A stretch of DNA of 64,000 bases from Phycisphaerae bacterium (GCA_029260165.1 JAJDDT010000116.1:1-64000); one strand, 5' to 3'; numbered from the stretch's first letter, positions 3,871-29,614 are shown. A program made the numbers and translations. The notes: generated by a model not told the origin, from the letters alone.

Positions 3871-6345
3871 GTGTCCACCTGTCTCACCGAAGTCGATTTC
3901 GAGCAATTCGACAACGGGGACTCGACCGACGCGGAGTTGGAACGCATCAGCGACCACATCTCTTCCTGCGACGCCTGCCGCATTGCCTACGAACGGTTTC
4001 AGAATGACGAGAGTTTCCTCGCCGGTGCCAGATCGCTCCTCGACGACGACATGACCATCCCCAAAATCCCGCGACGCCGAAAACCCTCTTCAGGCGATTT
4101 TACCATCGAGCACGCGCCAAAACTCGAACTCTCCAGGCACCTGCCCAACATCGACGGCTACAAGATCGTCGATGTTCTGGGTCACGGCGGGATGGGCATC
4201 GTTTACCGTGCGGTCCAGCTCAAGCTCAACCGCACGGTCGCGCTCAAGGTGCTCCCCTCGATGATTGGAGCCGCCAACCCCGCCGCCGTCGAACGCTTCC
4301 AAAGAGAAGCCAACGCAGCCGCAAGACTTCACCACACGCACATCATCCCCATCTACGATTTCGGCGAGTCTCACGATGCGTACTACTACGCCATGGAGCT
4401 TATCCAGGGGCAACCGATCTCTGTTTTGGTCAAACAATTTGCGAAGAAGAACGCAGCCAGCGCTTCCCCTGCTCGGTTGGCAGACATGCTGCGCAACACC
4501 ACTTATGAATCTCCCGACACCGGCAGATCCCAACCCTACATCATGCCCGACATCGACGAATCACGCGTCACGATGGCGACGCAGGGTTTCGGTCGCGGGC
4601 GCATCTACTACCGACAGGTCGCGCGATGGATTGCGGACGCTGCCCATGCGCTCCAATACGCCCACAGCCAGCGCATCATCCACCGCGATATCAAGCCCGC
4701 CAACCTGATTCTCTCCGTCGATGGTCGCATCATGGTCGCGGATTTCGGCCTGGCCAAGACCGAGGATGAGCACTCTGTCACGGTCACCGGTGCGCTTCTC
4801 GGGACGATTCGCTATTGCAGTCCCGAGCAGGCGATGGCGGGTCGCATCCCGCTCGACCATCGCACCGACGTTTACTCACTCGGTGCGACGATGTACGAGC
4901 TGCTCTGCTTCCAGCCTGCCTACCCCGGCGACGAAGACAAGAAGGTTCTCGCAGCCATCATGACCCGCGACCCGGTTTCGCCGCGGAAAATCGTCCCCCA
5001 TGTCCCTGCCGAACTGGAAACGATTTGTTTGAAAGCAATGGAACGCGCCCCCGACGCGCGCTATCAGACCGCCCGCGCCTTCGCCGAAGACCTTGAGCGC
5101 TACACCAAAGACCTGCCCATCGTCGCCAAGCGCCCACCGTTCCATAAACGAGCCGTCAAATTCGTGCGTCGCCATCGCGCTGCCACGACGGCTGCGACGG
5201 CGGGTGTGCTCGTTGTCGTCATGACGGTCGTGTTGTTCGTTCAGGAACAGATCCAGAAGGATCTGCGAAACGACGTTCACATGCAGGACGCTCGGCACGC
5301 GATGAACAACAATGAATACGACGACGCGCTAATCGATTTGCAGGCAGTCCTGGAGGAATCGCCCGACAACTGGCGCGCCATTGGAAACCTTGGCATTGTC
5401 GGCAAGGAGAAATTCAAACGCAGTGCCCAGGGCGAGGAAGACTTTCAGATTCTCCGCGACGCCGTCGCCAATTGCGATCGAGCGCTCGTGACCGAGCCTG
5501 ACCACCCTGGACTGCTCAGTACCAAGTCCGTGGCGCTGTACATGCTCAAAAAGCTGAAAAAAGCCGAGCAGGTTTGCAAGGATGCCCTCGATTCTCAGCA
5601 CCCGTGGGCCGCATCCAACTTGATCAAGATATATGCATTGCAGCGGCAAATCGACGAAGCCAAAGAAGTGAGCGACATCGCGGCCAGGCTCGCCGCCGAC
5701 AAACTCGTCGAACTCAGGAGGGGCGTGATCCCACGCGACGAAGCCAGCGGACAACAGCAGGCCCTCGGAAGTCTCTGGCGCACCATCGCCACCATTCGGT
5801 TTTTCCTTGACGACAAGGAAGGCACCGAAGAAGCCATCAGGTTCGCACTCAAGTTCGACAATCACCACCCCGGAAACCAGTTGATGAAGGCACGCATTCT
5901 CCTGGCCTACGGCGCTGATCATGACGACGAACGCGCCAGACCATACCTGTTTGCCCGAAATGCATGGAGAGAGGCCTCTGATCTCAAATACCCTGCACGC
6001 GATCCGCGTGGCGAGCGGATGGTCGCCTTGGCTATACTCAAGGAAGAGGACTATTCTGAAGCCATCGTCGAAGCCGAAAAAACAATCAACGCCGGCGACA
6101 TTCCCGCATTTGGGCATCTTGTTGCTTCGATTGCTCACGCCCACCTCGGCGCACGCGACGCAGCCCGCGCCCATCTCCGCGAAGCCGACGCCAAATGGCC
6201 TGATGATCTTCGCCAACCAGGCCAATACCGGGTCAACGCCGACCGCGAAATCCTCTGGTTTGAAACCGCCGACGAACTCATCCGCCTGCGATCCGAGGCG
6301 GAAAATCTCCTCGAAATTCCACATTCGGGTCCGCAAAATCGTTAA
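3871..6345 (+). CDS. Ser/Thr protein kinase with N-terminal ZAS-like zinc motif and C-terminal TPR repeats
   Basis: It starts at a GTG with an upstream GAGG. The sequence shows HRDIKPANLIL, DFGLAK and a GxGxxG glycine loop. The N-terminus has an H-x3-C-x2-C motif (DHISSCDAC). There is a transmembrane segment, then TPR-like repeats. Confidence 0.9.
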   Translation: MSTCLTEVDFEQFDNGDSTDAELERISDHISSCDACRIAYERFQNDESFLAGARSLLDDDMTIPKIPRRRKPSSGDFTIEHAPKLELSRHLPNIDGYKIVDVLGHGGMGIVYRAVQLKLNRTVALKVLPSMIGAANPAAVERFQREANAAARLHHTHIIPIYDFGESHDAYYYAMELIQGQPISVLVKQFAKKNAASASPARLADMLRNTTYESPDTGRSQPYIMPDIDESRVTMATQGFGRGRIYYRQVARWIADAAHALQYAHSQRIIHRDIKPANLILSVDGRIMVADFGLAKTEDEHSVTVTGALLGTIRYCSPEQAMAGRIPLDHRTDVYSLGATMYELLCFQPAYPGDEDKKVLAAIMTRDPVSPRKIVPHVPAELETICLKAMERAPDARYQTARAFAEDLERYTKDLPIVAKRPPFHKRAVKFVRRHRAATTAATAGVLVVVMTVVLFVQEQIQKDLRNDVHMQDARHAMNNNEYDDALIDLQAVLEESPDNWRAIGNLGIVGKEKFKRSAQGEEDFQILRDAVANCDRALVTEPDHPGLLSTKSVALYMLKKLKKAEQVCKDALDSQHPWAASNLIKIYALQRQIDEAKEVSDIAARLAADKLVELRRGVIPRDEASGQQQALGSLWRTIATIRFFLDDKEGTEEAIRFALKFDNHHPGNQLMKARILLAYGADHDDERARPYLFARNAWREASDLKYPARDPRGERMVALAILKEEDYSEAIVEAEKTINAGDIPAFGHLVASIAHAHLGARDAARAHLREADAKWPDDLRQPGQYRVNADREILWFETADELIRLRSEAENLLEIPHSGPQNR

Positions 6346-6391
6346 AACCGCCCCAGAACCAATCGTTCCAAAACGCAGAATAATTGGCATC

Positions 6392-6418
6392 CAACCCACC
6401 ATTTTGTTAGGATGGTGG
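6392..6418 (+). terminator. possible hairpin after the kinase gene (CCACCAT-N9-ATGGTGG)
   Basis: A 7-bp inverted repeat lies 50 bp past the stop codon, with no T-tract. Confidence 0.2.
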
Positions 6419-6590
6419 TGCTGTGGCTGCTTTGAACAGCCGCACATGTCCGCAGGTGACGAGGCTTCCCGCGGGCCTGATGGGGTGCTGCGACAAGACT
6501 GTCAACACGGTGTCCGTGCGCCCATGGTCAGCCGAACAACCGGAGTTCCGTCGTGACGCGCGACGTGACGCCAACGCAGGAGAGTCGGAT

Positions 6591-8507
6591 ATGCGTGCGA
6601 AAACACTGTTAGCCTCGATGTGCCTCGCTCTTGCGTGGACCCATACCGATGCCGTCGCGGGACCCTGCCTCTGCAACGGAAACGCGGACAACGTCGGGAC
6701 CGTGGACCCCAACGATATCGACCTCATCTTTACCTGCCTCGATGGCGATTGCACGGGTTGTGCGAACGACTGCGACGTGAACTGTGATGGTGTTGTCGAC
6801 CTCGAAGACGTCTCCGTGGCACAATGTCAACTCGGTACGAACGACCCAACCTGTTGCGCCGCCATCACCACCGGTGCCTGCTGCATCGACGGCATTACCT
6901 GCGCGCAGGCGACCCAGGCTGTCTGCCTCGCATCGGCGGACGCCCGCTACCTCGGCGACGGAACCATTTGCGCCGATGGTGGGTGTGATTGCAACGGCAA
7001 CGGCGTCAACGATCGGCTGGATATCGCCAACAACTTCGAGGACGACTGCAACCGCAACGGCATCCCCGACCGCTGTGAAATCAACGTGGTCAGTCCCGCG
7101 CCGGGCGGTCCGTTTTTCTGCAACATCCCGGGCAACTGCGACCCGGACTGCAACAACAACGGTCAACCCGATGGATGCGACATCGAACGGTGCGGTGCGG
7201 GCATACCCGCCAACCCCGATTGTCAGGACTGCAACCTCAACCGAATTCCCGACATCTGCGATATCTCGATGGGTGTGTCCAACGACTTCAATGGAGACTT
7301 CACCCCCGATGAGTGCCGCTTCTGGGACGGTGGGGGAGGCAATGACCTTTGGGGGAATCCGCAAAACTGGAATCCCGACACCCTGCCGCAGCCGAATGAT
7401 CCGGTCACCATCGCGGGACCAACAAGCATCGTTCAGCTCGATATCCCTGTACAAATCAGATCGCTAAGTCTCATCGACCGGGCTTCGCTCATCGTATCAT
7501 CACCCCTGCCGAATGATCTGCAGATTCTCGACGGACTCGACGTCCGCGGTAATCTCAGGCTCGGACGGGATCGCCAGGTTATCGTCATGAATGGTGATGC
7601 TGTCATCGGGTCATCCGGTTCGCTCAAACGCGACGGCGTCGATCCAACGACTGCAGCCTTGAGGGTTCTCAACGGCAATCTCAAGGTGCTCGAGGGAATC
7701 GCCACACAACCTCGTGGAGAGCTTGTTCTTGAAGATCGGATGGAGCTGAGCGTGTCCGGCGACGTCGTCGTCGATGGCAGAAACGCCGTCTCCTGCGATC
7801 TGATTCCCCTCGTCGGTCCCGACTGCACCCCACCGTTGCTCGAACTCACCAAAAACTCCAAGGCCGAGATATTTGGAAAAATGGAATTGAAGGGCTCCGT
7901 CGAGATCAAGGGTGGAAAACTCGTTGCATCAGCAGCCTCCGCGCCTTCAGGATCATCCGGACCATCCGCCGCAGGCCCGCCCGACCACCAGATCGTCCTT
8001 GGCGGTGATTTCCAGAACAAAGCCACCGACCCGCAATGCTTCGATTTCATCGACGGTGGCATCCGACTCGACAGCACGATCCCCCCGTTCGCCAACTTCG
8101 GTGAAGGCCTCCCGCAGGACTTTGAAGTCGCCGGCGCGGACATAGGCCCGGTCTTCGCGGGCCTCGATAATAATTTCGCCTTCGGGCAGATTACCATCAC
8201 CACGCCCACGCGGGTCAACTTCGTCGACCGCTTCGACAACGATGGAAACCCCTCGCGACGCGACGCACAGTATGTTCAGGTTCTGCGTCTGGATCCCGGT
8301 ACCCGGACAAATACCGTTGGTGTTAATGTCTACTACGTCGATCTCATCGACGGCGGAAGCGTCATCACCGGAAACGGGGCTCTCATTCCCATCGTTGGTC
8401 CCGCCGTTCCCGCTGCCTCCGGGTTCGCCATGTTCGTTCTTGCGTCGTGCATGATTCTTGCCGCCGCCCGCATCATGCGAAAACAGCGTTTTGAACCGCA
8501 GACATGA
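6591..8507 (+). CDS. secreted Cys/Asp-rich repeat protein (dockerin/EF-hand-like DxDxDG repeats) with C-terminal membrane-anchor sorting-like tail
   Basis: AGGAGA lies upstream of ATG 6591. The signal peptide is MRAKTLLASMCLALAWTHTDAVAG. Repeats such as DVNCDGVVDLEDV are present. The C-terminus is PAVPAASGFAMFVLASCMILAAARIMRKQR. Confidence 0.6.
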   Translation: MRAKTLLASMCLALAWTHTDAVAGPCLCNGNADNVGTVDPNDIDLIFTCLDGDCTGCANDCDVNCDGVVDLEDVSVAQCQLGTNDPTCCAAITTGACCIDGITCAQATQAVCLASADARYLGDGTICADGGCDCNGNGVNDRLDIANNFEDDCNRNGIPDRCEINVVSPAPGGPFFCNIPGNCDPDCNNNGQPDGCDIERCGAGIPANPDCQDCNLNRIPDICDISMGVSNDFNGDFTPDECRFWDGGGGNDLWGNPQNWNPDTLPQPNDPVTIAGPTSIVQLDIPVQIRSLSLIDRASLIVSSPLPNDLQILDGLDVRGNLRLGRDRQVIVMNGDAVIGSSGSLKRDGVDPTTAALRVLNGNLKVLEGIATQPRGELVLEDRMELSVSGDVVVDGRNAVSCDLIPLVGPDCTPPLLELTKNSKAEIFGKMELKGSVEIKGGKLVASAASAPSGSSGPSAAGPPDHQIVLGGDFQNKATDPQCFDFIDGGIRLDSTIPPFANFGEGLPQDFEVAGADIGPVFAGLDNNFAFGQITITTPTRVNFVDRFDNDGNPSRRDAQYVQVLRLDPGTRTNTVGVNVYYVDLIDGGSVITGNGALIPIVGPAVPAASGFAMFVLASCMILAAARIMRKQRFEPQT

Positions 8508-8646
8508 TCTGACAATCCAATCCGCCCCATTCAAAAATCGTCGCTGATTTGTAATAGTCAGTGTCGCGGGATCGTTGTAAAATGCGCCGACACCCAATAC
8601 CCCGTCCGGGTGTGCGTCAGAACCGAACCAGACAGGGACACGCGCA

Positions 8647-9327
8647 GTGAATGACTCGCTACAGACATCCTTGCTCGCGGCAGCGCCGATCGCCATGGTC
8701 GCGCTTGAAATCGCATACATTGCAAGCCTGATCGTCGGCGGTGGGCTGATGCTCCTGTCCACCATGTTCGGTCAGGATGCTGATGCCGACGTTGACTTCG
8801 GCGATGTTGATGCCGATTTCGACCTTGACACCGACGCCGATCCTGGAATCGACGCACCCCACGACGCGTCAGCCATGTCGCTGGCGAGTTGGTTTTCCAC
8901 GCAATTCGTCGTGTATTTCCTCGCAGGCTTTGGGCTTGTCGGCGTCGTTCTCACCTTTCTGACCCCGCAATCAACCGCCGCGGTCGCGGTCTCTGCCGTT
9001 GTCGTTGGTATCGTCACAGGCCAATCCGCCCACCACGTCCTGAGATACCTCAAACGCAGCAGCTCGGACAGCGCGCCGACGACGGCAGATTTTGTCAACA
9101 AACCCGCGCGCGTCACCATTACCGTTCAGCCAACCCAACGCGGCGAGGTGGCTGTCATGGTCCGGGGTCGCGAACGATTCGTGCCCGCCAAACCGAAACA
9201 CAACGACCAGAGCTTCAACGTCGGTGACACCATCGTCATCGTCAGCTACCACGCGGGCACCGCTGAAATCGTCAGCAAAGAGGAATTCGAATTCGTCGCC
9301 AACAAACCCCTGGGAGATTCGCAATGA
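8647..9327 (+). CDS. NfeD-like membrane protein (OB-fold, flotillin-associated)
   Basis: It has N-terminal transmembrane helices and a C-terminal beta-rich domain. Its stop overlaps the flotillin start (ATGA). The start is a GTG. Confidence 0.65.
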   Translation: MNDSLQTSLLAAAPIAMVALEIAYIASLIVGGGLMLLSTMFGQDADADVDFGDVDADFDLDTDADPGIDAPHDASAMSLASWFSTQFVVYFLAGFGLVGVVLTFLTPQSTAAVAVSAVVVGIVTGQSAHHVLRYLKRSSSDSAPTTADFVNKPARVTITVQPTQRGEVAVMVRGRERFVPAKPKHNDQSFNVGDTIVIVSYHAGTAEIVSKEEFEFVANKPLGDSQ

Positions 9328-14912: not shown

Positions 14913-15019
14913 TGGTACTGGTTGCAAAGGGTCGGCGGAGTCGTAAACGGTTTTGAAAAAAGGGTTTGTGTTCGTCGCGGTGGTTGGGTTTAATACCCGG
15001 CGAACTAGCTGAAAATGTC

Positions 15020-16162
15020 ATGAGCGGACAGGAAAAACACCGAGAATCTGAGGGGACGCAGCGGGAAGAGATGGCGGATCCGTCGGAACATGCGTTTTCG
15101 GGCGGTGGAGGCTATTCCGAGACGGGGGCGGATGAGCCTATGACGTCGTCGCTGATGGCGAGGCTCTTCGCCGTTCCGCTGGTGATTGTCAGTGTGGTTG
15201 TAGGATGTGCAGTGGTGGTTGTATTGCTGTTCGGGTCGATCGCGACGGATCAGGAGCGGTCGATTGACCGTTTGCTGACGATTCTGGAGACGCGCTCCGG
15301 GGAGAAGATGGTGGGGATGCTGCTTCCGAATGAGAAGGAGTTGTGGCAGGCGAGTCGGGAGTTGGCGTTGAGGCTTGGGAAAAAAGAGGTCGAGGTATCG
15401 GCTGATGAGCTGCCGATGGTGGTGGATCGGTTGTCCGCGATGTTGGCAGTTGGGGACGCGTCGGGGGAAACGGCTAACGAATGGGTGCTCAAGAAGCGTC
15501 ATTTTGTGATGCAGGCGGTTGCGATGACCGATTCGCCGAAGGCGGTTGGCGCGTTGGTTCCGTTGTTGCAATCGGATGACGGGATGACGCGGGGTCAGGC
15601 GTTGGCGTCGTTGGCGTCGTTGCGTGACCTGCCGGAGACGCGGGGTGCTTTGGGTGCGATGTTGCCGTTGTTGAAGGATGGTGATTCCGCCGTGCAGATG
15701 CAGGCGTGTGCAGCCATATCGGTCGTGGCTGAGACGGGTGACGTTGAGGCGATCGATGCGTTGGTTCAAGCCTATTTCGACGACGATCGCGAGGTTCAGT
15801 GGAATGCGACGTTGGCGTTGGCGCGGTTGGGGAGTTTGAAGGGGAAGTCACTTCTGTTGGACATGTTGACGCGTTCGTATTGGGAAAAGGATGTCAAGGT
15901 GCGGAAGGAGACTTCGCCGGGGAGTTTCGTGGAATATCCGCTACCGCCGTTGGCGGTTTCGCGTTATCTTGTGGCCGCTGTTGAGGCGGCTGGGCATGTT
16001 GATGATGCTCAGGTGTGGTCGCAGATCGAATCGCTGTCGAAGGACGAGTCGCCTGAGGTTCAGGAAGCGGTCCGGCGTGTACTGGATGAGCGCTCCGCTG
16101 TCGGGGGTTCATCAGGGTCGGGCTCGTTAGCCAAGAGTGAGGAAGTTGGCCATGGCCGTTAA
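15020..16162 (+). CDS. membrane-anchored HEAT/PBS-lyase-like repeat protein
   Basis: It has a transmembrane helix, then repeated LLxDxDxxVRxxAxxAL units (LVPLLQSDDGMTRGQALASL, MLPLLKDGDSAVQMQACAAI). Confidence 0.6.
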   Translation: MSGQEKHRESEGTQREEMADPSEHAFSGGGGYSETGADEPMTSSLMARLFAVPLVIVSVVVGCAVVVVLLFGSIATDQERSIDRLLTILETRSGEKMVGMLLPNEKELWQASRELALRLGKKEVEVSADELPMVVDRLSAMLAVGDASGETANEWVLKKRHFVMQAVAMTDSPKAVGALVPLLQSDDGMTRGQALASLASLRDLPETRGALGAMLPLLKDGDSAVQMQACAAISVVAETGDVEAIDALVQAYFDDDREVQWNATLALARLGSLKGKSLLLDMLTRSYWEKDVKVRKETSPGSFVEYPLPPLAVSRYLVAAVEAAGHVDDAQVWSQIESLSKDESPEVQEAVRRVLDERSAVGGSSGSGSLAKSEEVGHGR

Positions 16163-17210
16163 GGAACAGATCGTCAAAGTATGGATCGAGGAAGGGTGCA
16201 TCGTTTGCGATGCGTGCGAGACGGCTGCCCCGGACGTTTTCGATGTTCAGGATGAGACGTGCGAGATTCGTCCCGACGCGTTGAAGATGGAATTCACCAA
16301 GCCTCGGACGGACTCGATTGTTGAAGCGGCTGAGGAATGTCCGGTTGATGTGATCAAGTTTGACGTGGTTTCGGAGGAAGTGGCGGATGCTGCACTTGCG
16401 GCTCCTTCTCCCGCCGCGGCTGAGGCTGCCCCTGTCGCGTCCGCTCCTGCTCCCGTGGCGGCTGCTCCGTCTGAGCCTGCACCGGCTGCGGTTGCGAAGT
16501 CTCCGGTGAAATCGCCTGCGGTTTCTGTAGCGGGTGCCCCTGATCCTGCGATACAGGCGTTGTTGCGTGCTGCGACGGCGCGAGGGGGAATGGCGGGTCG
16601 ATCGAGGGACGAGGGTGGTCCCGAGGCTCGTGAATGGAGCAAAAAGCGGGCGGACGACTTGCCGCCTGATGCGCGTACGTCGAAGGTGATGCAGGGGACC
16701 AGGGGCAAGGACGCGGGGGTAACGCGTCGCGGTTTGCTGGCGGGTTCAGCGGCTGCGATCGGATGGGCGGCGTTTGGTGGGACGACGATGGTTTCGGGTG
16801 TGGCTTTCCAGCGATTCCTGATGCCGAACGTGTTGGAGGAACCTGATCCGAAGATTCGGGTGGGTACGGTTTCTCAGTATGCGCAGATGGTGCCCGGTGA
16901 GGTGAATGAAGACTACAAGCCAATCGGGGTTTGGATGATTCGCACGGAAGGCAAATTGGCGGCGCTCAATATTATTTGTACGCATCTTGGTTGTATTCCA
17001 AACTGGCTGGCGAATGACCGGAAGTTCAAGTGTCCGTGTCATGGAAGCGGTTTTTATCCTGATGGGATTAATTTTGAGGGACCAGCTCCGAGGCCTTTGG
17101 AGCGGTTTAAGATTTCGTTGATCGACGGGACGATTGTCGTCGATCGGAGCAAGAAGTTTCAATTTGAGAAGGGTGAGTGGGACAATTCCGACAGTTATTT
17201 GTCGGTGTAG
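16152..17210 (+). CDS. Rieske [2Fe-2S] subunit of cytochrome bc complex with N-terminal ferredoxin-like (CxxCxxC...CP) domain
   Basis: AGGAAG lies 6 nt before ATG 16152. The N-terminus has CIVCDACETAAPDVF and ECPVD. An Ala/Pro linker follows, then an internal twin-arginine TRRGLLAGSAAA, then the Rieske boxes CTHLGC and CPCHGS. Confidence 0.85.
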   Translation: MAVKEQIVKVWIEEGCIVCDACETAAPDVFDVQDETCEIRPDALKMEFTKPRTDSIVEAAEECPVDVIKFDVVSEEVADAALAAPSPAAAEAAPVASAPAPVAAAPSEPAPAAVAKSPVKSPAVSVAGAPDPAIQALLRAATARGGMAGRSRDEGGPEAREWSKKRADDLPPDARTSKVMQGTRGKDAGVTRRGLLAGSAAAIGWAAFGGTTMVSGVAFQRFLMPNVLEEPDPKIRVGTVSQYAQMVPGEVNEDYKPIGVWMIRTEGKLAALNIICTHLGCIPNWLANDRKFKCPCHGSGFYPDGINFEGPAPRPLERFKISLIDGTIVVDRSKKFQFEKGEWDNSDSYLSV

Positions 17211-17294: not shown

Positions 17295-18080
17295 ATGAGT
17301 TTATTCAGCCGATTTGGTGACTGGGTCCGTGAGGGACAGGTTTGGGGCAGCGTGTTGCGACATGGTGTTCCGCGAGATCGTCGGACACGTGCGATGGCGA
17401 TATTGAGCAATGTGTTTCTGCACCTTCATCCCGTGGCGATTCGCAAGAGTGGTATTCGCTTGAGCTTCACATGGTGCATGGGGGGTCTGACCTTCTTTCT
17501 GTTTTTGATCGAGGTCGTGACCGGTGTGCTCCTGATGTTCTACTACAGACCGACGGTGGAATATGCCTATTTTGATATTCAGGGTCTGCGAGCGCATGTG
17601 ACGCTGGGACTGTTGCGCGAGATGCATCGGTGGGGTGCGCACGCGATGGTGATTGCGATCTGGCTGCACATGCTTCGTGTGTTTTTGACGGGTAGTTACA
17701 AACCGCCTCGCGAGTTCAACTGGACGATTGGTGTGATTCTGTTGGTATTGACGCTGTTGTTGTCATTTACCGGGTATTTATTGCCTTGGGATCAGTTGGC
17801 GATGTGGGCGATTACGGTGGGGTCGAACATGGCCCGTGCGACGCCATTGATTGGTCATGAGGGGCCGCTGGCGCAGTATGTGCAGATTGGCGGTGTACCG
17901 CTGGTGCATGCCGGTGACGATGCGCGTTTCGGGTTGCTGGCCGGTACGTTCGTGGGGCCTAATGCGCTGTTGCGGTTTTATGTGTTGCATTGCATTTTCA
18001 TTCCGCTGGTGGTCGGCGTGTTGATTGCGGTTCATTTCTGGCGGATTCGCAAGGATGGCGGAATCAGTGGTCCGCTGTAG
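17295..18080 (+). CDS. cytochrome b, N-terminal (b6-like) half
   Basis: It has four transmembrane helices with conserved His pairs (HLHP..., [15 protein letters not shown]). The PEWY region is absent, which marks it as the split N-terminal half. Confidence 0.9.
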
Positions 18081-18126: not shown

Positions 18127-19281
18127 ATGATTGAATCAATGAACAGTCTGTTGGCTGGTGAGACGCTGCTCGCTTCGGGTGGTGTTGAAACGGTTAAGAA
18201 CGCGATCAACTGGGTATGTCAGCCTCACTGGTTTTTCGTTCTTTCGTGTGGTGTGACGGGGGTTTTTCTGGGTGGTTATCGTGCGTTAACCAGGCCTGCG
18301 GTCGCTCTTTTTGCGCTGATCGCATTCACGATTGCCTATGGCCTGTCGGCGATGGACGCGGACTTTCTGTCGATCATCATCAAGCCTGACAACGTTCCGA
18401 TCACGTTGATGATTTATTTGTTTGGTTTTTTCATCTGGCTGGGATTTCGCCAGGCAGCGGTCAACGACGAAAACACAGAGCAGGGCAGGCCGCTGATCGA
18501 GGCGGGTTCGGACGACAAGGTGTTGGTCTGGCCTGATCTGGTTTATATCGAATTGATAGCGATGGTGCTCTGCACGGTATTTATCATCGTATGGGCGGTG
18601 GTGTTGCGGGCACCGTTGGAGCAGCCCGCCGACCCGAGTCTGGCTCCGAATCCCGCGAAGGCACCCTGGTATTTCCTGGGGTTGCAGGAGTTGCTGGTTT
18701 ATTTTGATCCGTGGATTGCGGGTGTGCTGCTGCCGGGGTTGATCGTTGTTGGTTTGATTGCGGTTCCGTACCTCGACAAGAACCCGAGGGGGAACGGGTA
18801 TTACACGTTCAAGGAGCGAAAGTTTGCGATCTCGATGTTCATGATCGGGTTCGTGATTCTCTGGCTGGTGCTGATCGTGTTCGGCACGTTTTTGCGTGGT
18901 CCGAACTGGAATTTCTTCGGTCCGTATGAATATTGGGATGTGCACAGGCCGGCGGCGCTGTTGAATATCAACCTGTCTGAGATTTTCTGGGTTCAGTGGT
19001 TGAATCAGGGGATTCCGACGGAGGGCAGGTGGGGTCTGCCGCATTTTGTTTATCGCGAGTTGCCGGGGATTGTGGTGTTGCTTGGGTACTTTTTTGTGTT
19101 GCCGGTGATGCTGCGGGTGACTGTGTTCAAGCGGATGGGCGATCAGATCGGACTGATTCGCTACTCGTTGTTGATCATGCTGTTTTTGTGGATGGCATTG
19201 ATTCCCATCAAGATGGTTTTGCGATGGGGCTGGAATTTCAAGTACATCGTGGGCATCACCGAGTGGTTCCTTAACTTTTAG
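18127..19281 (+). CDS. cytochrome b C-terminal half / subunit-IV-like, extended
   Basis: It has the PWYFLGLQELLVYF (PEWY-like) motif and multiple transmembrane helices. At 384 aa it is much longer than b6f subunit IV. Confidence 0.8.
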   Translation: MIESMNSLLAGETLLASGGVETVKNAINWVCQPHWFFVLSCGVTGVFLGGYRALTRPAVALFALIAFTIAYGLSAMDADFLSIIIKPDNVPITLMIYLFGFFIWLGFRQAAVNDENTEQGRPLIEAGSDDKVLVWPDLVYIELIAMVLCTVFIIVWAVVLRAPLEQPADPSLAPNPAKAPWYFLGLQELLVYFDPWIAGVLLPGLIVVGLIAVPYLDKNPRGNGYYTFKERKFAISMFMIGFVILWLVLIVFGTFLRGPNWNFFGPYEYWDVHRPAALLNINLSEIFWVQWLNQGIPTEGRWGLPHFVYRELPGIVVLLGYFFVLPVMLRVTVFKRMGDQIGLIRYSLLIMLFLWMALIPIKMVLRWGWNFKYIVGITEWFLNF

Positions 19282-19304: not shown

Positions 19305-22300
19305 ATGCCGATACCTGTCGAAACGCTTCGGGATATGAATGGGCTTAACCGCTGGTTTGCGGTGAGTTGCCTGCTGATGTTCGCGAGTTTGATCTGGATG
19401 GTCTGGGAGGATTACGATCGTCCCTGGCGTGGGTATCAGGACGACTACATGGTGGTCCAGGCTGCGCTGGCGCACCTCGACTATCTTGATACGCAAACCG
19501 AATCGTTTCAAAACGGGGTTGCGGTCGCCCGGGAACAGGTTGAACGGGCAAATGTGGAACGAGAAGCCAACGCGTCGGTCAGGACCGGCCTGGAAACTGA
19601 GCTTGCGAAACTGAAGACGCAGCACGACGCGGTGAAGATCGGCTTTGGGAATGCCAATGCGATCGTTCAGGTGACGCGCGTTGAGTATGAAGAGGCTGTC
19701 AGCGCTCATGGTGAGGACGATGAGCACACTAAGGTCGTGTGGCAGAAGTTACATAGTCAGGAGGAGACCGTCGCCGACCTGAAACTGACCAAAGACGGGA
19801 TCGAGGACGATCAAAAGAGTTTGCGGTCGCGGATCAAGGGGATTGATCAACAGGTGGCTGATGCTCAGAAGGCGGTGGACGCGCTGTTAAAGGTAGCGTC
19901 AGATGCGGAGGAAAAAGAGCAGCGGTATACCAACGTGCTCGCCAAGGCGGTGATCAACGCACCGCTCATGGATTTCACGGCTCCCAAGGGGACCGAATCG
20001 CGTCATGAGGTCAAACAGTATGTGCTGCCCGATGTGCGTCAGGAGTTGAACTATCTGCAGACGTACACGACCGATCGTTGTACGACGTGTCATGTCGCGA
20101 TCGATGACAAGGGATTCACGCGTGAGAATTTGGCGAGAAAGTTTGAGCGGGCGTTGCCAGCCATCAATGAAAAACTGATCCGCCAAAGCCTGGCGGTGGT
20201 TGATTTTCCGGAAATACCGGAAGTCAGCGGAGATTTTGCGCCGGAGATCGCACCGGGACAGGTGACTGAGTTCTGGACGTTGTTGTCGGCGGATCAGCAG
20301 CGATCGTATTTCAGCGAGCTTCTTGAGCGGGTCAATACGTTCCTCTCGCGGACCGGCAAGCAGGAGATGAACCTCAGTCAGCCAATCATGGCGCATTCGA
20401 ATCTGGACTTGTTTGTGCATGTGGATTCATCGCACCCAGCGGTCAAAATCGGTTGCACGGTGTGTCATGAGGGGAATCCGCAGGAGACGGATTTTGTGCA
20501 GGCGGCGCACTCGCCGGTGACGCATGAACAGGAGCATGACTGGAAGGAAAAATATTATGTGACGGCTGCGTTTGTTCCAAATGTGACGTTTGACGTGGTC
20601 GAGCATCACTGGGACAGGCCCATGCTGCCGCCGAAGTATTCCGAGGCGGGTTGTGCGAAGTGTCACACGCAGATTGCCGACATTTCGAGTTACGACGGGG
20701 AATCGCAGGCGAAGCGGTTGAACCTCGGGCGCGATCTGTTCACGCGGGCAGGCTGCGTGAATTGCCACGCGGTCGACCAACTGGAAGACGCTCGCAAGGT
20801 CGGGCCTGACCTGACGCGGATTTCATCGAAGCTCGAGCGTGGGTTTACCGAGCAGTGGGTGTTCAACCCGAAGGCGTTTCGCCCGTCGACGTGGATGCCT
20901 CATTTCTTCATGCAGGAAAACAACGGACCGGGTTCGGAGAGTCATCTGGACGAAAACCCCGTTTTGCGCACCGAAACTGAAGCCCAGGCCATCACGCACT
21001 ACCTGTTTACGATGTCGCAGGACTGGTCGCCCGATCCGATGCCGAATGATCTGACCGGCGACGTCGAAAAGGGACGCAAACTGTTCAACTCGGTGGGTTG
21101 TCTCGCCTGTCATGCGAACGTGGCGGAGTTCGGCCGGGAAATGATCGTGGCGGACATGGTCAATCGCGAGGGACGGACCGGGAAATTCGCCGACGCGTAC
21201 TACGATGATTTGACCTACACAGAGCGCGTGTACCATCTGATTGAGCATGTGTCGAGCGATCGCGACACGGTGTTTTCTCCCGAAGCGATCGGGGATCGAC
21301 CCGTGTTCACGCGTCATGGTCCCGATCTGTCCGCTGTCGGGATGAAGGCCAACCGGGCGTGGTTGTTTGGCTGGCTGAAAAACCCCGCCGACTACAACCC
21401 GAACACGCGCATGCCTTCGTTGCGTCTGACCGATCAGGAGGCGGCTGACATTGTCGAATATCTGATGACGTTAAAGGAGAATCACGCGTTTTCGACGTCT
21501 TCGTTCCCCGGTGATAACGAACACAAACAGATGGCCAGGGATCTGGTGTTCCAGTTGTTATCGAGTCAGAATTCCGACCGCCGTGCGACCGCGATCATGA
21601 ACGACGAAAACCTCGAGCTGACCGGAATGTTGAAGGGTTTCGTCTCTGATTCACTGGACGCTGATCGCGTCGAGTCGTTGTTTTCAGGGTTGTCGCTTGA
21701 AGACAGGCAGATGATGTTTCTGGGCAACAAGATGATTGCGCATTATGGGTGTTACGCCTGCCACACCATCGTCGGGTTCGAGAAGTCGCCACCCCCGGGA
21801 ACCAACCTGACGAAATGGGGTGAAAAGCCCCTGTCGCAGTTGGATTTCGGCATGTATACGCACGCGCACGACCATCTGCGTGACGAGCGTCCGGAGGTCT
21901 TCGACAAGGTGTATCCACTCGAGCGTGACGATCTGATCGAATGGTCGCAGGGGGGAAACCCGGATGAGCAGATAACACACTCACACGCCGGGTTTGCCAA
22001 ACACAAAATGCTCAACCCGCGGATATGGGATCGTGAAAGGATCAAGGGGCCGTACGACAAAATCAAGATGCCGAATTTCTACTTCACGGAGGATCAGTCC
22101 GATGCGCTGGTGACGTTCCTCCTGTCGCGGAAATCAGCAAGGGTCACGAGCAGTCTGCAGATCGACTATAACGGAGGCCGTCAGGGTGCGATCGCCGAGG
22201 GGCGCGTGCTCGCTCGCGAGTTGAACTGCATCGGATGTCACAAGATCGAGGACAATGTCGCCGTCGTCCATCAGTTCTACACGACCAGCGACGATGGTTA

Positions 22301-23261
22301 CGCGAACTTCGACGAGGTGAATGCTCCGCCCTGGCTTCGGGGGCAGGGTTCCAAGGTTCAATACGCCTGGTTATACGGGTTCTTCAGCAACGTCGAAACG
22401 CTGCGACCCTGGTTGAAAATCCGGATGCCGACTTTCAACCTGACCGACGAGGAAACGACGACGCTGGTGTCGTATTTCGCGGGTATCGCGCAGGACGAAG
22501 CCGCCATGCTGGCGGAAAATCTCAAGCCCGTACACAAGTTCATCAATAGTGCCTCGAAGAAAGAAGGCGGCGACGTGCACAAGGCTGACTATTGGTTCGC
22601 GACCGATGAACTGCGTGGCCAGGCCAAAACGCTCGGCGATTATTGTGTCGCCAACCGTCTGATGCTGACGTTTGATCTGGACCCGTCAAACAGCAAAGAG
22701 GACCTTGCCGAAGCCTATCGCAGCACAGCCGACAAAGCTGATTTCACGCGTGAGTTGCTGGACGTGAAGTTCCCGTTTTCCGAAAGCCCGCGACCGATGA
22801 TCGATGACGAGCGATTCAGGCTTGGGGAGGCGTTCTTCTACGAGTTGAAGTGTCTTTCCTGTCATGTCCTGGGTGATCCGACTATCGAAGGTTCCAACAG
22901 CAATCCGTCGGCTCCGAATCTGGACCTGACGCATGCCCGTTTGAGTCAGAAATGGGTGGATTTGTGGATGCAGGAGCCTGCCAATCTGCAACCAGGAACG
23001 AAGATGCCGCAATGGTTCCCGGGTGGCAGGAGTGCCTTTGCCGAGTATCCCGACGATCTCAAAACGGAACTGGAAGGTCAATACGGTGCGACCGGAGCGG
23101 ATCAGATCGCACTGATGATGGATTTCCTGTATAGTGCGGGTGCAAGAAATTACACCGCTCTTCAACCCGGCGGCCTGGGAACAGACGCTGGTGATGCCTC
23201 CTCCGGTGACGACGACGAGGAAAGTGATGAGGAGGAGGACGAAGAGGAGGAAGAGGAATAG
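19305..23261 (+). CDS. large multiheme cytochrome c (8 CxxCH) with poly-acidic C-terminal tail
   Basis: Heme motifs are CTTCH, CTVCH, CAKCH, CVNCH, CLACH, CYACH, CIGCH and CLSCH. There is an N-terminal transmembrane segment. The protein ends ...SGDDDEESDEEEDEEEEEE. Confidence 0.85.
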   Translation: MPIPVETLRDMNGLNRWFAVSCLLMFASLIWMVWEDYDRPWRGYQDDYMVVQAALAHLDYLDTQTESFQNGVAVAREQVERANVEREANASVRTGLETELAKLKTQHDAVKIGFGNANAIVQVTRVEYEEAVSAHGEDDEHTKVVWQKLHSQEETVADLKLTKDGIEDDQKSLRSRIKGIDQQVADAQKAVDALLKVASDAEEKEQRYTNVLAKAVINAPLMDFTAPKGTESRHEVKQYVLPDVRQELNYLQTYTTDRCTTCHVAIDDKGFTRENLARKFERALPAINEKLIRQSLAVVDFPEIPEVSGDFAPEIAPGQVTEFWTLLSADQQRSYFSELLERVNTFLSRTGKQEMNLSQPIMAHSNLDLFVHVDSSHPAVKIGCTVCHEGNPQETDFVQAAHSPVTHEQEHDWKEKYYVTAAFVPNVTFDVVEHHWDRPMLPPKYSEAGCAKCHTQIADISSYDGESQAKRLNLGRDLFTRAGCVNCHAVDQLEDARKVGPDLTRISSKLERGFTEQWVFNPKAFRPSTWMPHFFMQENNGPGSESHLDENPVLRTETEAQAITHYLFTMSQDWSPDPMPNDLTGDVEKGRKLFNSVGCLACHANVAEFGREMIVADMVNREGRTGKFADAYYDDLTYTERVYHLIEHVSSDRDTVFSPEAIGDRPVFTRHGPDLSAVGMKANRAWLFGWLKNPADYNPNTRMPSLRLTDQEAADIVEYLMTLKENHAFSTSSFPGDNEHKQMARDLVFQLLSSQNSDRRATAIMNDENLELTGMLKGFVSDSLDADRVESLFSGLSLEDRQMMFLGNKMIAHYGCYACHTIVGFEKSPPPGTNLTKWGEKPLSQLDFGMYTHAHDHLRDERPEVFDKVYPLERDDLIEWSQGGNPDEQITHSHAGFAKHKMLNPRIWDRERIKGPYDKIKMPNFYFTEDQSDALVTFLLSRKSARVTSSLQIDYNGGRQGAIAEGRVLARELNCIGCHKIEDNVAVVHQFYTTSDDGYANFDEVNAPPWLRGQGSKVQYAWLYGFFSNVETLRPWLKIRMPTFNLTDEETTTLVSYFAGIAQDEAAMLAENLKPVHKFINSASKKEGGDVHKADYWFATDELRGQAKTLGDYCVANRLMLTFDLDPSNSKEDLAEAYRSTADKADFTRELLDVKFPFSESPRPMIDDERFRLGEAFFYELKCLSCHVLGDPTIEGSNSNPSAPNLDLTHARLSQKWVDLWMQEPANLQPGTKMPQWFPGGRSAFAEYPDDLKTELEGQYGATGADQIALMMDFLYSAGARNYTALQPGGLGTDAGDASSGDDDEESDEEEDEEEEEE

Positions 23262-23369
23262 AATAGGATAGAACGGAAAGGATCGAGGGCGTTGGCCGAT
23301 ATCAGAAGTGTGACGCGAAACGTCGGCCGCGTTGGTCCGATAACATCTTTGCAGCAGGAGAACAGATTC

Positions 23370-24116
23370 ATGAACAGCAGACGAATCGCAGCGTTGACAG
23401 TCGTTTTCGCCTTCGCGGGCAGTGGTTTTTTCGCCGAAGCGTTGGCGGATGGTGCGACCATCAAGGGCAAAATCAGTTGGAACGGCAAGCCATTCAAAGC
23501 CAAACGATACGCAATGAACGCCCAGTGCAAGGGCCTTCACGAAAAAGCGGGTCAGAAGGTTCCGCGCAAGGAAAAGACCGTCACAAACGAGAACGGGACT
23601 ACCAAAAACGTGTTTATGTACATTAAGAACGCGCCGAAGGGCGATTATCCCACGCCGAATGCGCCGGTCGTGTTGGACCAGATTGGCTGCACCTACGTTC
23701 CGCACGTTTTTGGTGTGATGGCTGGTCAGGGAATTCTGATCAAGAACAGTGATGAAGTGTCTCACAACGTTCACGCAGTACCGAATGCAAGGCTCGGAAA
23801 AAACAAGGAGTTCAACAAGTCTCAGCCTCGCAAGGGTCTTGAGACGACCGAGTCTTTCAAACGCGCGGAGATCGGTGTGAAGTTCAAGTGCGACGTTCAT
23901 CCGTGGATGTCGGCCCGCTGTCACGTCATGGACCATCCGTTTTTTGACACGACCGGCGACGATGGCACGTTTGAGATTACGGGGTTACCGCCCGGAACGT
24001 ACAGCGTGGTTGCGTGGCATGAAAAGCACGGCGAGACGACAGTGGAAGTCACCGTCGCTCAGGACGAGACAAAGGAAGCCGACCTGACGCTTTCGCGAAA
24101 GGGCTGGGCTGAATAG
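23370..24116 (+). CDS. secreted cupredoxin (amicyanin/pseudoazurin-like type-1 Cu site) with C-terminal CarboxypepD_reg-like beta-sandwich
   Basis: The signal peptide is MNSRRIAALTVVFAFAGSG. SHNVHAV matches the amicyanin N-terminal His ligand (PHNVHFV). KCDVHPWM matches the C-x2-H-x2-M loop (CTPHPFM). The tail is DGTFEITGLPPGTYSV. Confidence 0.55.
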   Translation: MNSRRIAALTVVFAFAGSGFFAEALADGATIKGKISWNGKPFKAKRYAMNAQCKGLHEKAGQKVPRKEKTVTNENGTTKNVFMYIKNAPKGDYPTPNAPVVLDQIGCTYVPHVFGVMAGQGILIKNSDEVSHNVHAVPNARLGKNKEFNKSQPRKGLETTESFKRAEIGVKFKCDVHPWMSARCHVMDHPFFDTTGDDGTFEITGLPPGTYSVVAWHEKHGETTVEVTVAQDETKEADLTLSRKGWAE

Positions 24117-24221: not shown

Positions 24222-25235
24222 ATGAATGAGCAGGTTTTGACATCTGATGGGCATGATGCGTTGCGGCATCGGCTGGCGATCGGGCTGATGTGCGGAACAG
24301 CCGGTCTGGTCTTCGTCGGCGGGTCGGTGACAAGCAATGACGCGGGGATGGCTGTCCCGGATTGGCCGACGACGTTCGGGGAAAACATGTTCCTGTACCA
24401 CCCGCGGAACTGGGTGGGCGACATTCTGTTTGAGCATGTTCACCGGTTGTGGGGGGCAGCCGTCGGGATGATCACGATCGCAGTGACCCTGTTGACCCAA
24501 TTTCGCGACAAAAGACAAGCGGTATGCTGGTTCGGGTGGATTCTGCTGGCTGCGGTCATCGGGCAGGGCGTGATGGGCGGCTATCGCGTGAACAATGATT
24601 CGATTCGGTTGGCCATCACCCACGGTTGTTTCGCCCACCTGTTTTTCTGTGGGACGGTCGTGATGGTACTGGTGACGTCGCGGAAGTGGCCACGGGTGGG
24701 GAGTAGCGATGGGTTTGGCGTCGGATTGCGTTGGTTCACGATTGCGACGGCGACAGCGGTTTTCGCCCAGGTCGTGATCGGAGCGATCTACAGACATCTG
24801 TCTGTCGGGTTGGCCTACCATGTGATTGGCGCGTGCGTGACGACGTTGCTGATCTGCGGTTTGGTGATGTGGGTGACCGGACACCATCATGAGCATCGGT
24901 GGTTGATGAGGTTGACCAAATGGTTCGGCGGATTGTTCATGCTGCAGTTGATGCTCGGTGTGGCTGCCTATGTTGCGGTGATGACTTACAACGTGGATTA
25001 CGCTGCCCACAACGAACGTCAAGCCGATACGGAGATGGTCGATGGATCGGTTGCTGCTGACGAGGCTGCGTTTCGTGACGCGACGTTTTTTGAGTGGTTC
25101 CTGCCGTCGCTGCATGTTGTGGTCGGAGCGGGCGTGCTTGGGATTTCCGCGGGGATGGCGTTGAGCGTTTGTCGCGAGGGCGCGAAGGTCTCAGATGCAG
25201 GTAAACTGACCGGGGAAGGAGTATCGGTGACATGA
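24222..25235 (+). CDS. ctaA: heme A synthase (COX15/CtaA family)
   Basis: It has the DWPTTFG motif, multiple transmembrane helices and conserved His residues. Confidence 0.85.
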   Translation: MNEQVLTSDGHDALRHRLAIGLMCGTAGLVFVGGSVTSNDAGMAVPDWPTTFGENMFLYHPRNWVGDILFEHVHRLWGAAVGMITIAVTLLTQFRDKRQAVCWFGWILLAAVIGQGVMGGYRVNNDSIRLAITHGCFAHLFFCGTVVMVLVTSRKWPRVGSSDGFGVGLRWFTIATATAVFAQVVIGAIYRHLSVGLAYHVIGACVTTLLICGLVMWVTGHHHEHRWLMRLTKWFGGLFMLQLMLGVAAYVAVMTYNVDYAAHNERQADTEMVDGSVAADEAAFRDATFFEWFLPSLHVVVGAGVLGISAGMALSVCREGAKVSDAGKLTGEGVSVT

Positions 25236-26140
25236 AAGCGGTTGTGGGTGCGAATCCGGTTTCGACGGGCGAATCGGTGTTGTTTGACTACATCGCCCTG
25301 GCCAAGCCTCGGGTGGCGAGTTTGGTCGTTCTGTCGTCGTCGGTCGGATTCTACCTGGGGCATGTCGGGGTATTTGCGATCGCAGACGTGGTCCGGATGC
25401 TGACGATGATGCTGGGGACCGTGCTGGTCGTGTCGGCTGGTAACGCGACCAACCAGATCATCGAGCGAGCCCATGACGCAAAGATGATCCGGACAGCCAA
25501 TCGCCCGTTGGCGTCGGGCCGAATGCAGAGTGCCCAGGCTGTCTCGTTTTCACTTGTCACGCTCGTCTCGGGGCTGGTGATTCTCGGTTTTGGAAACAAC
25601 GTGGTGTCCGCTGTGGTGGCGTTGACAGCGTTTCTGAGCTACGCGTTCGTCTACACGCCCATGAAACGGGTCGGACCGTCGGCTGTGATGATCGGAGCCG
25701 TTCCGGGAGCGCTACCGACGGTGATTGGTTGGTCAGCCTCAACGGGCGGACTGGAGCTGGGAGCCTGGCTGCTGTTCGCCATCGTCTTTTTCTGGCAACT
25801 GCCGCACTTTCAAGCCATCGCGTGGATCTATCGCGACGACTACGCCCGTGCGGGTTTCAAGGTTCTTCCAGTTGTGCATCCAGGCGGAAAACGGTCCATG
25901 ATCGAGGTTGTGGGATTCAGTCTGCTGCTGATTCCCGTGACGCTGTTACCGACGTTTTTCGACCTGGTGGGGGTGGTCTACTATGTCTGTGCGATGGCGT
26001 TGGGATTCGCGTTTCTGGCCTACGGATTGGAAATGGTCAGGCTCCGAACACACGAAAGCGCGAAACAGCACATGTGGGCGTCCCTGGCCTATCTGACACT
26101 TGTGTTTGTTTTGCTGATTGTTGACAAGTCAACCGCCTAA
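25232..26140 (+). CDS. ctaB: protoheme IX farnesyltransferase (heme O synthase, UbiA family)
   Basis: It has NQIIERAHDAKMIRTANRPLASG. Its ATG overlaps the ctaA stop (ATGA). Confidence 0.9.
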   Translation: MKAVVGANPVSTGESVLFDYIALAKPRVASLVVLSSSVGFYLGHVGVFAIADVVRMLTMMLGTVLVVSAGNATNQIIERAHDAKMIRTANRPLASGRMQSAQAVSFSLVTLVSGLVILGFGNNVVSAVVALTAFLSYAFVYTPMKRVGPSAVMIGAVPGALPTVIGWSASTGGLELGAWLLFAIVFFWQLPHFQAIAWIYRDDYARAGFKVLPVVHPGGKRSMIEVVGFSLLLIPVTLLPTFFDLVGVVYYVCAMALGFAFLAYGLEMVRLRTHESAKQHMWASLAYLTLVFVLLIVDKSTA

Positions 26141-26155
26141 ACCGGGGCGACAAAA

Positions 26156-26631: not shown

Positions 26632-26696
26632 CGTGCAATCCTCTCGGACGTCACATCACACTCGTGATGAGCCGTTCGGGATTATAGCCGATTACG

Positions 26697-27011: not shown

Positions 27012-27023
27012 TCTTGATCGCTC

Positions 27024-27851: not shown

Positions 27852-27878
27852 AGTGTCGGTCTCCTAAGGGTTCGCAAA

Positions 27879-29603: not shown

Positions 29604-29614
29604 GAGGCTCGTCC

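Follow-up and report, generated by a model that had tools for sequence, protein, structure and literature searches.

The window analysed here is a 64,000-nucleotide (nt) stretch of DNA from a Phycisphaerae bacterium (GCA_029260165.1 JAJDDT010000116.1:1-64000). At 16152..17210, on the plus strand, it carries a gene in which a ferredoxin and a Rieske iron-sulfur (Fe-S) protein are joined in one frame (Fd::Rieske), an assignment drawn from the open reading frame (ORF), Pfam searches, an alignment of orthologues and an AlphaFold2 model. The ORF comprises 352 codons between an ATG at 16152 and a stop codon at 17208-17210. Judged from sequence, the 352-residue product is made up of a ferredoxin domain, an Ala/Pro-rich tether followed by helical motifs, a twin-arginine (RR) motif with one membrane helix, and a Rieske domain. 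By the same evidence it is a single bitopic protein, the Rieske subunit of a b6-type menaquinol:cytochrome c oxidoreductase, and we consider this architecture and its topology very probably correct. The initial annotation, made from the sequence alone, had noticed the single-cluster ferredoxin signature, the Ala/Pro-rich linker, an internal RR motif of the twin-arginine translocation (Tat) type with a hydrophobic anchor, and the Rieske boxes, and all of these elements are borne out by the analysis. We placed the translation start at 16152 because every orthologue aligned (n = 27) begins with MA(V/T)KE, a Shine-Dalgarno-like GAGGAAG read from the sequence (16138..16144, plus strand) lies 8 nt 5' of the ATG, and the upstream HEAT gene, stop codon included, extends 11 nt into the fusion gene; an in-frame GTG at 16137 is a possible alternative start that would add five residues. 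Conservation is given below for these 27 aligned sequences, and the AlphaFold2 model was built on an alignment of the same size.

The ferredoxin domain (residues 1-76; 16152..16379, plus strand) matches Pfam Fer4_13 over residues 13-69 with 29.0 bits against a cut-off of 24.5, and is modelled as a confident ferredoxin fold with predicted local distance difference test (pLDDT) values of 83-92. Its motif C16-I-V-C19-D-A-C22...E-C63-P-V-D supplies the four predicted [4Fe-4S] ligands C16, C19, C22 and C63 (C-x2-C-x2-C...C-P64), which are invariant, and the domain would thus carry a [4Fe-4S] cluster on the cytoplasmic side. Across the orthologue alignment it shows 73% mean identity and no insertions or deletions, compared with 71% for the Rieske domain. 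The best solved relative of the isolated domain is the [4Fe-4S] ferredoxin of Bacillus thermoproteolyticus (1IQZ, E 3.6e-5), followed by the monocluster ferredoxins of Pyrococcus and Thermotoga, with all four cysteine ligands aligned. The subfamily signature KVWIExGCIVCDAC...TCxIRP is common only to the fusions and to membrane-anchored ferredoxins of the Bacteriovoracaceae. A fifth cysteine, Cys37 (16260..16262), stands in the T-C-x-I-R-P part of this signature; it is nearly invariant in the fusions, is also kept in the Bacteriovoracaceae proteins and, by the standard motif, is no cluster ligand.

The ferredoxin domain is followed by a tether of residues 77-127 (16380..16532, plus strand) with pLDDT below 50, which AlphaFold2 leaves disordered over residues 80-127. 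Alanine and proline make up 62% of residues 76-127, and the length of the tether varies from 46 to 96 residues among the orthologues, the frame always being kept. A disordered, variable Ala/Pro tether of this kind recalls the swinging-arm linkers of the lipoyl domains of 2-oxoacid dehydrogenases. Between the tether and the membrane anchor lies a conserved cytoplasmic region (residues 128-189; 16533..16718, plus strand), recognised by invariant residues and modelled helices, with the motifs G128..PDPAIQALLRAATARGG146 (helix 132-143) and L170-PPDAR175 (helix 172-184) and a further modelled helix at 157-163. Invariant in this region are G128, L137, L138, A140, A141, R144, G145, G146 and P171.

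Residues 190-222 (16719..16817, plus strand) comprise the RR motif T191-R192-R193-G-L-L and the sole transmembrane (TM) helix, which is Gly/Ala-rich (T191-R192-R193-GLLAGSAAAIGWAAF) and is modelled as one long helix over residues 192-222. R192 and R193 are invariant in 27/27 orthologues. By hydropathy there is one TM-grade segment outside the Rieske core, at residues ~194-219; no hydrophobic segment was found before residue 194 and no N-terminal signal peptide was found in the fusion protein. The net charge is +3 over the 15 residues preceding the TM segment and -1 over the 15 residues after it, and since a signal peptide is lacking as well, the N-terminus is predicted to be cytoplasmic. Furthermore, the RR of the fusion aligns with the N-terminal RR of unfused Rieske proteins of the Bacteriovoracaceae (VTRRGLLAGSAAAIGW in the window, MRQKLNRREFFSFLSIGW in the relative), and therefore the internal RR-helix is, on sequence grounds, probably an uncleaved, displaced Tat-type signal-anchor ahead of which the ferredoxin domain would stay in the cytoplasm. 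The topology prediction proposed in the initial annotation hence comes out with one TM segment and a cytoplasmic N-terminus, and the extra Fe-S cluster that it had put on the cytoplasmic face is likewise supported by flanking charge, the single TM segment and the homology of the RR. It had also called the arrangement non-canonical, rightly so, given that 190 residues with a folded cofactor domain precede the TM helix. A Rieske protein usually has a single TM anchor with a short cytoplasmic tail, and a Tat signal usually stands at the N-terminus; here the anchor is single, and the RR lies at residues 192-193 of 352.

Past the membrane, a hinge or neck of the form F-x-M-P-N-V-x-E-E-P-D-P (residues 223-240; 16818..16871, plus strand) has 73% mean identity, with P225, N226, V227, E229 and P233 invariant. 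The predicted periplasmic Rieske [2Fe-2S] domain occupies residues 241-352 (16872..17207, plus strand) and is matched by Pfam Rieske over residues 241-319 (36.1 bits vs a cut-off of 20.3, 6.1e-9). Both box I (C276-T-H-L-G-C281) and box II (C294-P-C296-H297-G-S299) are invariant, the disulfide cysteines included. Ser299 of the high-potential signature is present; most orthologues also have the Tyr of that signature (CPCHGSGY), and the window protein has Phe rather than Tyr at His+4. The closest solved Rieske structure is that of the soluble domain of Kustd1480 from Kuenenia stuttgartiensis (PDB 9rk3; 52% identity, E 1.2e-38).

No curated NCBIfam family reaches its cut-off for the fusion protein: the PetC models NF045928 and NF010001 give 61.3 bits vs 250 and 62.1 vs 154, matching only the C-terminal 70 residues, and bc1_QcrA_actin gives 26 bits vs 275. 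With the complete model as query, Foldseek gave PDB matches for the Rieske/TM part alone, and the full architecture was found in no solved chain. Public databases label such proteins generically as "Rieske 2Fe-2S domain-containing protein" or "4Fe-4S domain-containing protein". We found no description of a ferredoxin-Rieske fusion in the literature open to full-text search. In Rieske phylogenetics terminal extensions were trimmed prior to analysis (PMC3509893), and this may be why the architecture has escaped comment.

The fusion is conserved well beyond the window. The initial annotation had suggested looking for ferredoxin-Rieske fusions in Planctomycetota, and they occur there across many members; in a scan of species-level genomes the full fusion appeared only in this phylum (Phycisphaerae, Phycisphaeraceae, Tepidisphaerales and metagenome-assembled genomes labelled Planctomycetales or Planctomycetaceae). 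Counted over the 21 species-level genomes that hold both the ferredoxin and the Rieske part, a single uninterrupted ORF is found in 18, and the frameshift or linker stop that might have separated two genes was found neither there nor in the window. Of the 120 protein clusters that score best (54-100% identity; NCBI, JGI, ENA and Logan), nearly all are full-length with Rieske and nearly all carry the precomputed PF13370 match, while three list Rieske only. An internal start at M180, which would yield a separate canonical Rieske protein, was considered and rejected, this Met not being conserved in the 27 orthologues. The three remaining genomes are of two kinds. In L045 (Tepidisphaerales, 5621..6860) and L046 (Phycisphaerales, 7941..9225) the ferredoxin-linker and the Rieske part form two adjacent genes, a ferredoxin-plus-linker gene of 236-251 codons overlapping by ~30 nt, in another frame, with a Rieske gene of 185 codons. 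Both break at the identical junction just before the RR, which thereby falls close to the N-terminus of the separate Rieske protein. Downstream of either pair no cytochrome b gene was found; these would be genuine split paralogues or cases of programmed frameshifting. In L041 the frame changes at another position, on a 1.7-Mb contig, and this may be an assembly error.

Among clusters at 50% identity, 116 match at E<=1e-30, and a survey of the best 150 clusters at this level showed several architectures. These are the ferredoxin, long linker and Rieske form of 345-375 residues; a ferredoxin and Rieske form with a linker of ~25 residues (243-310 residues in all; e.g. P0121, P0127 and P0130); a protein of 414 residues with two ferredoxins ahead of Rieske (P0123, two Fer4_13 matches, CxxCxxC at residues 17 and 98); and a form in which a cofactor-free N-terminal extension of repeats precedes Rieske. 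In this last group of Planctomycete proteins without ferredoxin (P0143, P0144, P0151, P0153, P0197, P0215 and P0136), 2-4 S-V-E-E-I-L-A-A-A-R-G-G-like repeats alternate with Ala/Pro linkers. A single copy of the motif, D-P-A-I-Q-A-L-L-R-A-A-T-A-R-G-G, is present in the window protein itself at residues 131-146 (16542..16589). Assignment of the repeat to a known family was dropped, as Pfam gave no match even at E<=10.

Those unfused Rieske proteins that come nearest, with 49-56% identity over residues 190-352, belong to the Bacteriovoracaceae and a few Acidobacteriota. Their loci likewise encode b6, a long subunit IV and a multihaem cytochrome, with a HEAT_2/HEAT_PBS protein upstream. A search for a ferredoxin gene beside this Bacteriovoracaceae bc operon was abandoned after tblastn gave no ferredoxin match in those loci. 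The same family does possess well-conserved proteins of 282-284 residues (L068 7341..8189; L067 7353..8207) with an N-terminal TM helix, ~200 residues and a C-terminal Fer4_13 domain. The ferredoxin domain of the 282-residue protein is 61% identical to that of the window (E 2e-19), and this family of membrane ferredoxins numbers more than 100 clusters. A partnership of ferredoxin and Rieske is supported, in the Rosetta-stone sense, by the adjacent genes of L045 and L046 together with the separate membrane ferredoxin of the Bacteriovoracaceae.

The fusion gene is the second of a five-gene operon. The first gene encodes a membrane-anchored HEAT-repeat protein of 398 residues (14966..16162, plus strand; Pfam HEAT_2 5.8e-18, HEAT_PBS; TM-like segment at residues 59-96). 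Genes of the HEAT_2/PBS-lyase-HEAT-like type always lie directly upstream of the Rieske gene, in the fused operons of Planctomycetota as well as in the unfused ones of Bacteriovoracaceae, where for instance L030 has a HEAT_2/HEAT_PBS protein at the corresponding position (7029..7931). Demonstrable homology between the HEAT proteins of the two lineages was dropped (pairwise BLAST E 0.52), Pfam families and position being all they have in common. PBS-lyase HEAT proteins attach tetrapyrroles to cysteine via a thioether bond. For haem cN, the attachment machinery outside cyanobacteria and plastids has been described as unknown (PMC5600118). The HEAT protein is thus a candidate assembly factor or partner of the complex.

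Downstream of the fusion gene by 85 nt lies a gene for a cytochrome b6-type subunit of 261 residues (17295..18080, plus strand; Pfam Cytochrome_B 4.8e-40), which keeps the haem-cN cysteine in F-T-W-C61-M-G-G (residues 58-64, CxGG). The motif N-V-F-L-H43-L-H45-P (residues 39-46) stands 18 residues upstream of C61, and H43 is conserved in essentially all of ~60 related cytochromes b, distant phyla included. The next gene encodes an extended subunit-IV-like protein of 384 residues with ~7 TM-like segments (18127..19281, plus strand; Pfam Cytochrom_B_C 3.1e-6) and the Qo motif A-P-W-Y at residue 179. Membership of the Geobacter Ext (selenite/tellurite) families was not reached, with 262.7 bits vs 290 for ExtP, matched by the b6 subunit, and 68.9 vs 150 for ExtQ. 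The last gene encodes a membrane-anchored octahaem cytochrome c of 1318 residues with 8 CxxCH motifs (19305..23261, plus strand; Pfam Cytochrom_C 1.4e-31) in place of cytochrome f or c1, and it is found downstream in the Planctomycetota and Bacteriovoracaceae loci too. The order HEAT, Fd::Rieske, b6, subunit IV, octahaem cytochrome c recurs in at least 17 Planctomycetota loci; at gene level, Rieske and cytochrome b are thus encoded together in the window and in these loci.

The operon is followed by an aa3 oxidase region (24222..31364), in which Pfam identified ctaA (24222-25235), ctaB (25232-26140) and SCO1 (30609-31364) on the plus strand and COX3 (27024-27851), COX1 (27879-29603) and COX2 (29615-30577) on the minus strand; a DUF420 gene is also among its genes. 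Between the octahaem cytochrome gene and ctaA, a protein of 274 residues (23292..24116, plus strand) has a signal-peptide-like N-terminus (MNSRRIAALTVVFAFAGSG), a C-D-V-H-P-W-M sequence resembling the C-x2-H-x2-M copper loop of the amicyanin type, and a CarboxypepD_reg-like C-terminal domain; this cupredoxin-like protein may be a copper electron carrier to the oxidase. Taken together, the operon and the aa3 cluster look like the aerobic quinol-to-oxygen chain of the cell, with the operon encoding its main complex III. The operon and the genes around it were found to include no NAD(P)/FAD Fe-S oxidoreductase, and neither a ferredoxin-dependent enzyme nor a Tat component was found in the rest of the window. 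Further away we observed adjacent genes for Double-GTPase (DO-GTPase1/2) and GTPase-associated GAP1 proteins beside a gene of the FGE-sulfatase family (57132..59197, plus strand), and an ORF of 1370 codons without a Pfam match at E<=0.001 (50790..54902, minus strand) alongside a dihaem cytochrome c gene (49713..50597, minus strand).

We propose that both cofactor domains would fold and receive their clusters in the cytoplasm, and that Tat would then recognise the internal RR-helix and export only the C-terminal Rieske domain, the ferredoxin and tether remaining on the cytoplasmic (n) face. The ferredoxin domain would act as a tethered, swinging one-electron carrier exchanging electrons with the n-side haems cN and bN and possibly with an interface haem bound by His43, and the complex would gain a cytoplasmic electron port on top of a normal Q cycle. 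We infer this exchange from the invariant ligands, from the variants with short linkers or two ferredoxins, from the split and membrane-anchored homologues, from the conservation of the haem-cN cysteine and of His43, and from the n-side Fe-S modules proposed for the closest relatives that have been studied. Flow would be mainly inward: a low-potential donor in the cytoplasm would reduce the [4Fe-4S] cluster, and the electrons would reach menaquinone at the Qn site by way of haem cN, as in a ferredoxin:quinone reductase. This direction is favoured because what appears to be the main aerobic complex III needs a working Qn site, in which case inward transfer would be downhill and outward transfer uphill; menaquinone as the pool quinone of Planctomycetes and a low-potential cluster are assumed here. 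That the ferredoxin domain is an n-side redox port at all we hold to be marginally probable. The tethered port with mainly inward flow, taken as a whole, is the best explanation we can offer, with the chances about evenly balanced. Within the port reading the inward direction is put forward tentatively, and the outward one seems distinctly improbable.

The simplest alternative, that separate ferredoxin and Rieske genes were merged by an error of sequencing, assembly or frame, could appeal to the 3/21 species genomes with parts in different frames (L041, L045 and L046). It is nonetheless highly improbable, given the open frame in the window and in 18 genomes, the nearly always full-length best clusters, which are independent, come from five data sources and differ in linker length, the adjacent and overlapping genes of the split cases, and the lack of a conserved internal start codon. 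A more serious alternative accepts the fusion and denies that the ferredoxin is wired to b6: it might be a sensor of redox state, O2 or iron, an assembly or quality-control module keeping the Tat signal back until cofactor insertion is complete, or a ferredoxin parked at the membrane for other enzymes, the N-terminal extension serving mainly to recruit a cytoplasmic partner. Many Planctomycete orthologues carry cofactor-free ILAAARGG repeats with Ala/Pro linkers, in extensions of similar length, where the window protein has its ferredoxin, and since the latter retains one copy of the motif, the shared function of the extension appears independent of a cluster. A partner enzyme is also missing from the operon, and the HEAT-repeat protein always encoded upstream is of a type that typically binds peptides or helices. 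Against this stand the four invariant cysteines in a domain as conserved as the catalytic Rieske domain, the variants with ~25-residue linkers that would hold the cluster right at the n face, the double-ferredoxin variant, and the occurrence of the fusion only alongside a b6 with the haem-cN cysteine, a correlation confounded by phylogeny. We judge a ferredoxin not wired to b6 to be somewhat unlikely.

The other alternative keeps the port and reverses it. Quinol oxidation at the Qo site would be bifurcated, the high-potential electron passing via Rieske and the octahaem cytochrome to the aa3 oxidase and the low-potential one reducing the tethered [4Fe-4S] cluster for use by cytoplasmic enzymes. 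This is suggested by the nearness of the Rieske domain to Kustd1480, the potential of which (+335 mV) against menaquinone was argued to permit very low-potential b haems and the reduction of NAD(P)+ via an n-side Fe-S chain (PMC12954380), by the retained Ser299 and the Tyr of CPCHGSGY in most orthologues, and by the conserved His43. However, the complex adjoins aa3 genes and looks like the main aerobic complex III, and a stoichiometric, tethered ferredoxin cannot absorb half of the respiratory flux. Where the Qn site works, reduction of a low-potential cluster would be uphill and would have to compete with that of quinone. Neither an NAD(P) oxidoreductase nor another acceptor was found in the operon, and the window protein has the Phe at His+4. 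Bifurcation with outward flow is therefore regarded as unlikely.

Several points also weigh against the inward port that we prefer. The replacement of the ferredoxin by cofactor-free repeats in many orthologues implies that the cluster is dispensable for the core complex, and neither a donor nor an acceptor enzyme for the tethered ferredoxin was found in the operon. In the Bacteriovoracaceae the gene for the membrane ferredoxin follows infB-rbfA-truB, away from the bc operon, and its link to the bc complex is circumstantial. The extra interface haem comes from AlphaFold3 modelling in another organism, the His that would bind it being matched here by position and motif, and the argument for the direction of flow is a purely thermodynamic one that depends on the assumed menaquinone pool and low-potential cluster. 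As to the anchor, the motif reads T-R-R-G-L-L-A where the Tat consensus is S/T-R-R-x-F-L-K, and the Tat profile TIGR01409 matches residues 190-218 with 16.2 bits, slightly below its cut-off of 16.7; 8/27 orthologues match it at E<=0.1.

Rieske/cytochrome b complexes are among the best-studied energy converters, and their Rieske subunit is normally a bare helix with one cluster domain. If the proposed port is real, it would be natural evidence for direct electron exchange between ferredoxin and b6-type complexes with haem cN, at the Qn/haem-cN site, matching the long-debated ferredoxin:quinone reductase of cyclic flow through the cytochrome b6f complex (b6f) or, run in reverse, the bifurcation-driven generation of low-potential reductant postulated for anammox complexes. 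Whether ferredoxin exchanges electrons with the n side is unsettled for photosynthetic cyclic flow and has been raised anew for anammox complexes, and a phylum-wide tethered cluster together with the haem-cN cysteine would offer a genetically hard-wired system for this question. Moreover, with folded cofactor domains on either side of a single internal RR-helix and no Sec-inserted helices in front of it, the protein is an unusual test case for Tat. Jointly with an n-side ferredoxin port, the fusion might define a new class of Tat substrate in which a folded, cofactor-bearing soluble domain is held in the cytoplasm before an internal signal-anchor, a possibility that we advance with reserve. 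What appears new is the addition of an n-side cluster to a Rieske/cytochrome b6 complex, combined with an unusual Tat topology, an arrangement for which we infer a function from the sequence.

Each part of the protein has known counterparts. The monocluster ferredoxins of 1IQZ, Pyrococcus furiosus and Thermotoga maritima belong to the same Fer4_13 family and have the same CxxCxxC...CP ligands residue by residue, but they are free, soluble proteins of 60-81 residues, whereas the domain in the window is the N-terminus of a membrane subunit. PetC of b6f likewise is a Rieske protein with a single TM helix and an uncleaved Tat-type anchor, the spinach and Nostoc chains aligning over the TM helix and the Rieske domain, and b6f shares with the window complex the b6 and subunit IV proteins and the haem-cN CxGG motif. 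In b6f, however, PetC has a short N-terminal tail and ferredoxin is free and soluble; for cyclic flow, a ferredoxin/FNR route of electrons into haem cN has been put forward (PMC5600118). The window complex differs further in lacking cytochrome f, in its Qo motif APWY and in belonging to a non-photosynthetic organism.

In actinobacterial QcrA, inserted by Sec as well as Tat, the RR is internal too and directly precedes the final TM helix, by which the Rieske domain is taken across the membrane (PMC3471235, PMC5449189). Its RR follows two (or four) Sec-inserted TM helices, in contrast to the ~190 soluble, cofactor-binding residues and zero TM helices that precede it here. A survey of internal Tat motifs, which occur in a few other families as well, reports several TM helices ahead of the RR in every family and describes no candidate whose N-terminal domain is soluble (PMC5449189). 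The fused polyferredoxin Q1NSB0 of the NapH-NapG type resembles the window protein in that a single chain is predicted to bear Fe-S clusters on either side of the membrane, with an internal RR ahead of the exported domain (PMC5449189), but it differs in its five TM helices and seven [4Fe-4S] clusters, belongs to a quinol dehydrogenase family unrelated in sequence and lies outside the Rieske/cytochrome b complexes.

The closest parallel is provided by the complexes Kustd1480-1485 and Kuste4569-4574 of Kuenenia stuttgartiensis, which comprise b6-type and multihaem c cytochromes and a cytoplasmic NAD(P) oxidoreductase, and the Rieske potentials of which were measured as +303 and +335 mV, the latter for Kustd1480 (PMC12954380; PDB 9rk3, 9rk4). 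They come from the same phylum and share with the window complex a split, b6-type cytochrome b, an enlarged subunit IV, a multihaem cytochrome replacing cytochrome f, the haem-cN cysteine and a proposed placement of Fe-S clusters on the cytoplasmic face; by position and motif, a conserved His near the N-terminus of b6 may be common to them as well. In AlphaFold3 models of the Kuenenia complexes, His43 or His62 binds an extra b haem where the two cytochromes b of the dimer meet, and this haem leads to a cytoplasmic [4Fe-4S] chain (PMC12954380). H43 of the window protein corresponds in numbering to His43 of Kuste4571, and its likeness to that residue and to His62 of Kustd1481 is one of position and motif only. 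The Kuenenia complexes serve anammox, whereas the window context is aerobic with an aa3 oxidase, and an N-terminal ferredoxin on Rieske is not mentioned for them (PMC12954380). Above all, their n-side Fe-S clusters reside in a separate, operon-encoded NAD(P)/FAD oxidoreductase, while the complex in the window would have a single [4Fe-4S] domain fused to the Rieske subunit itself.

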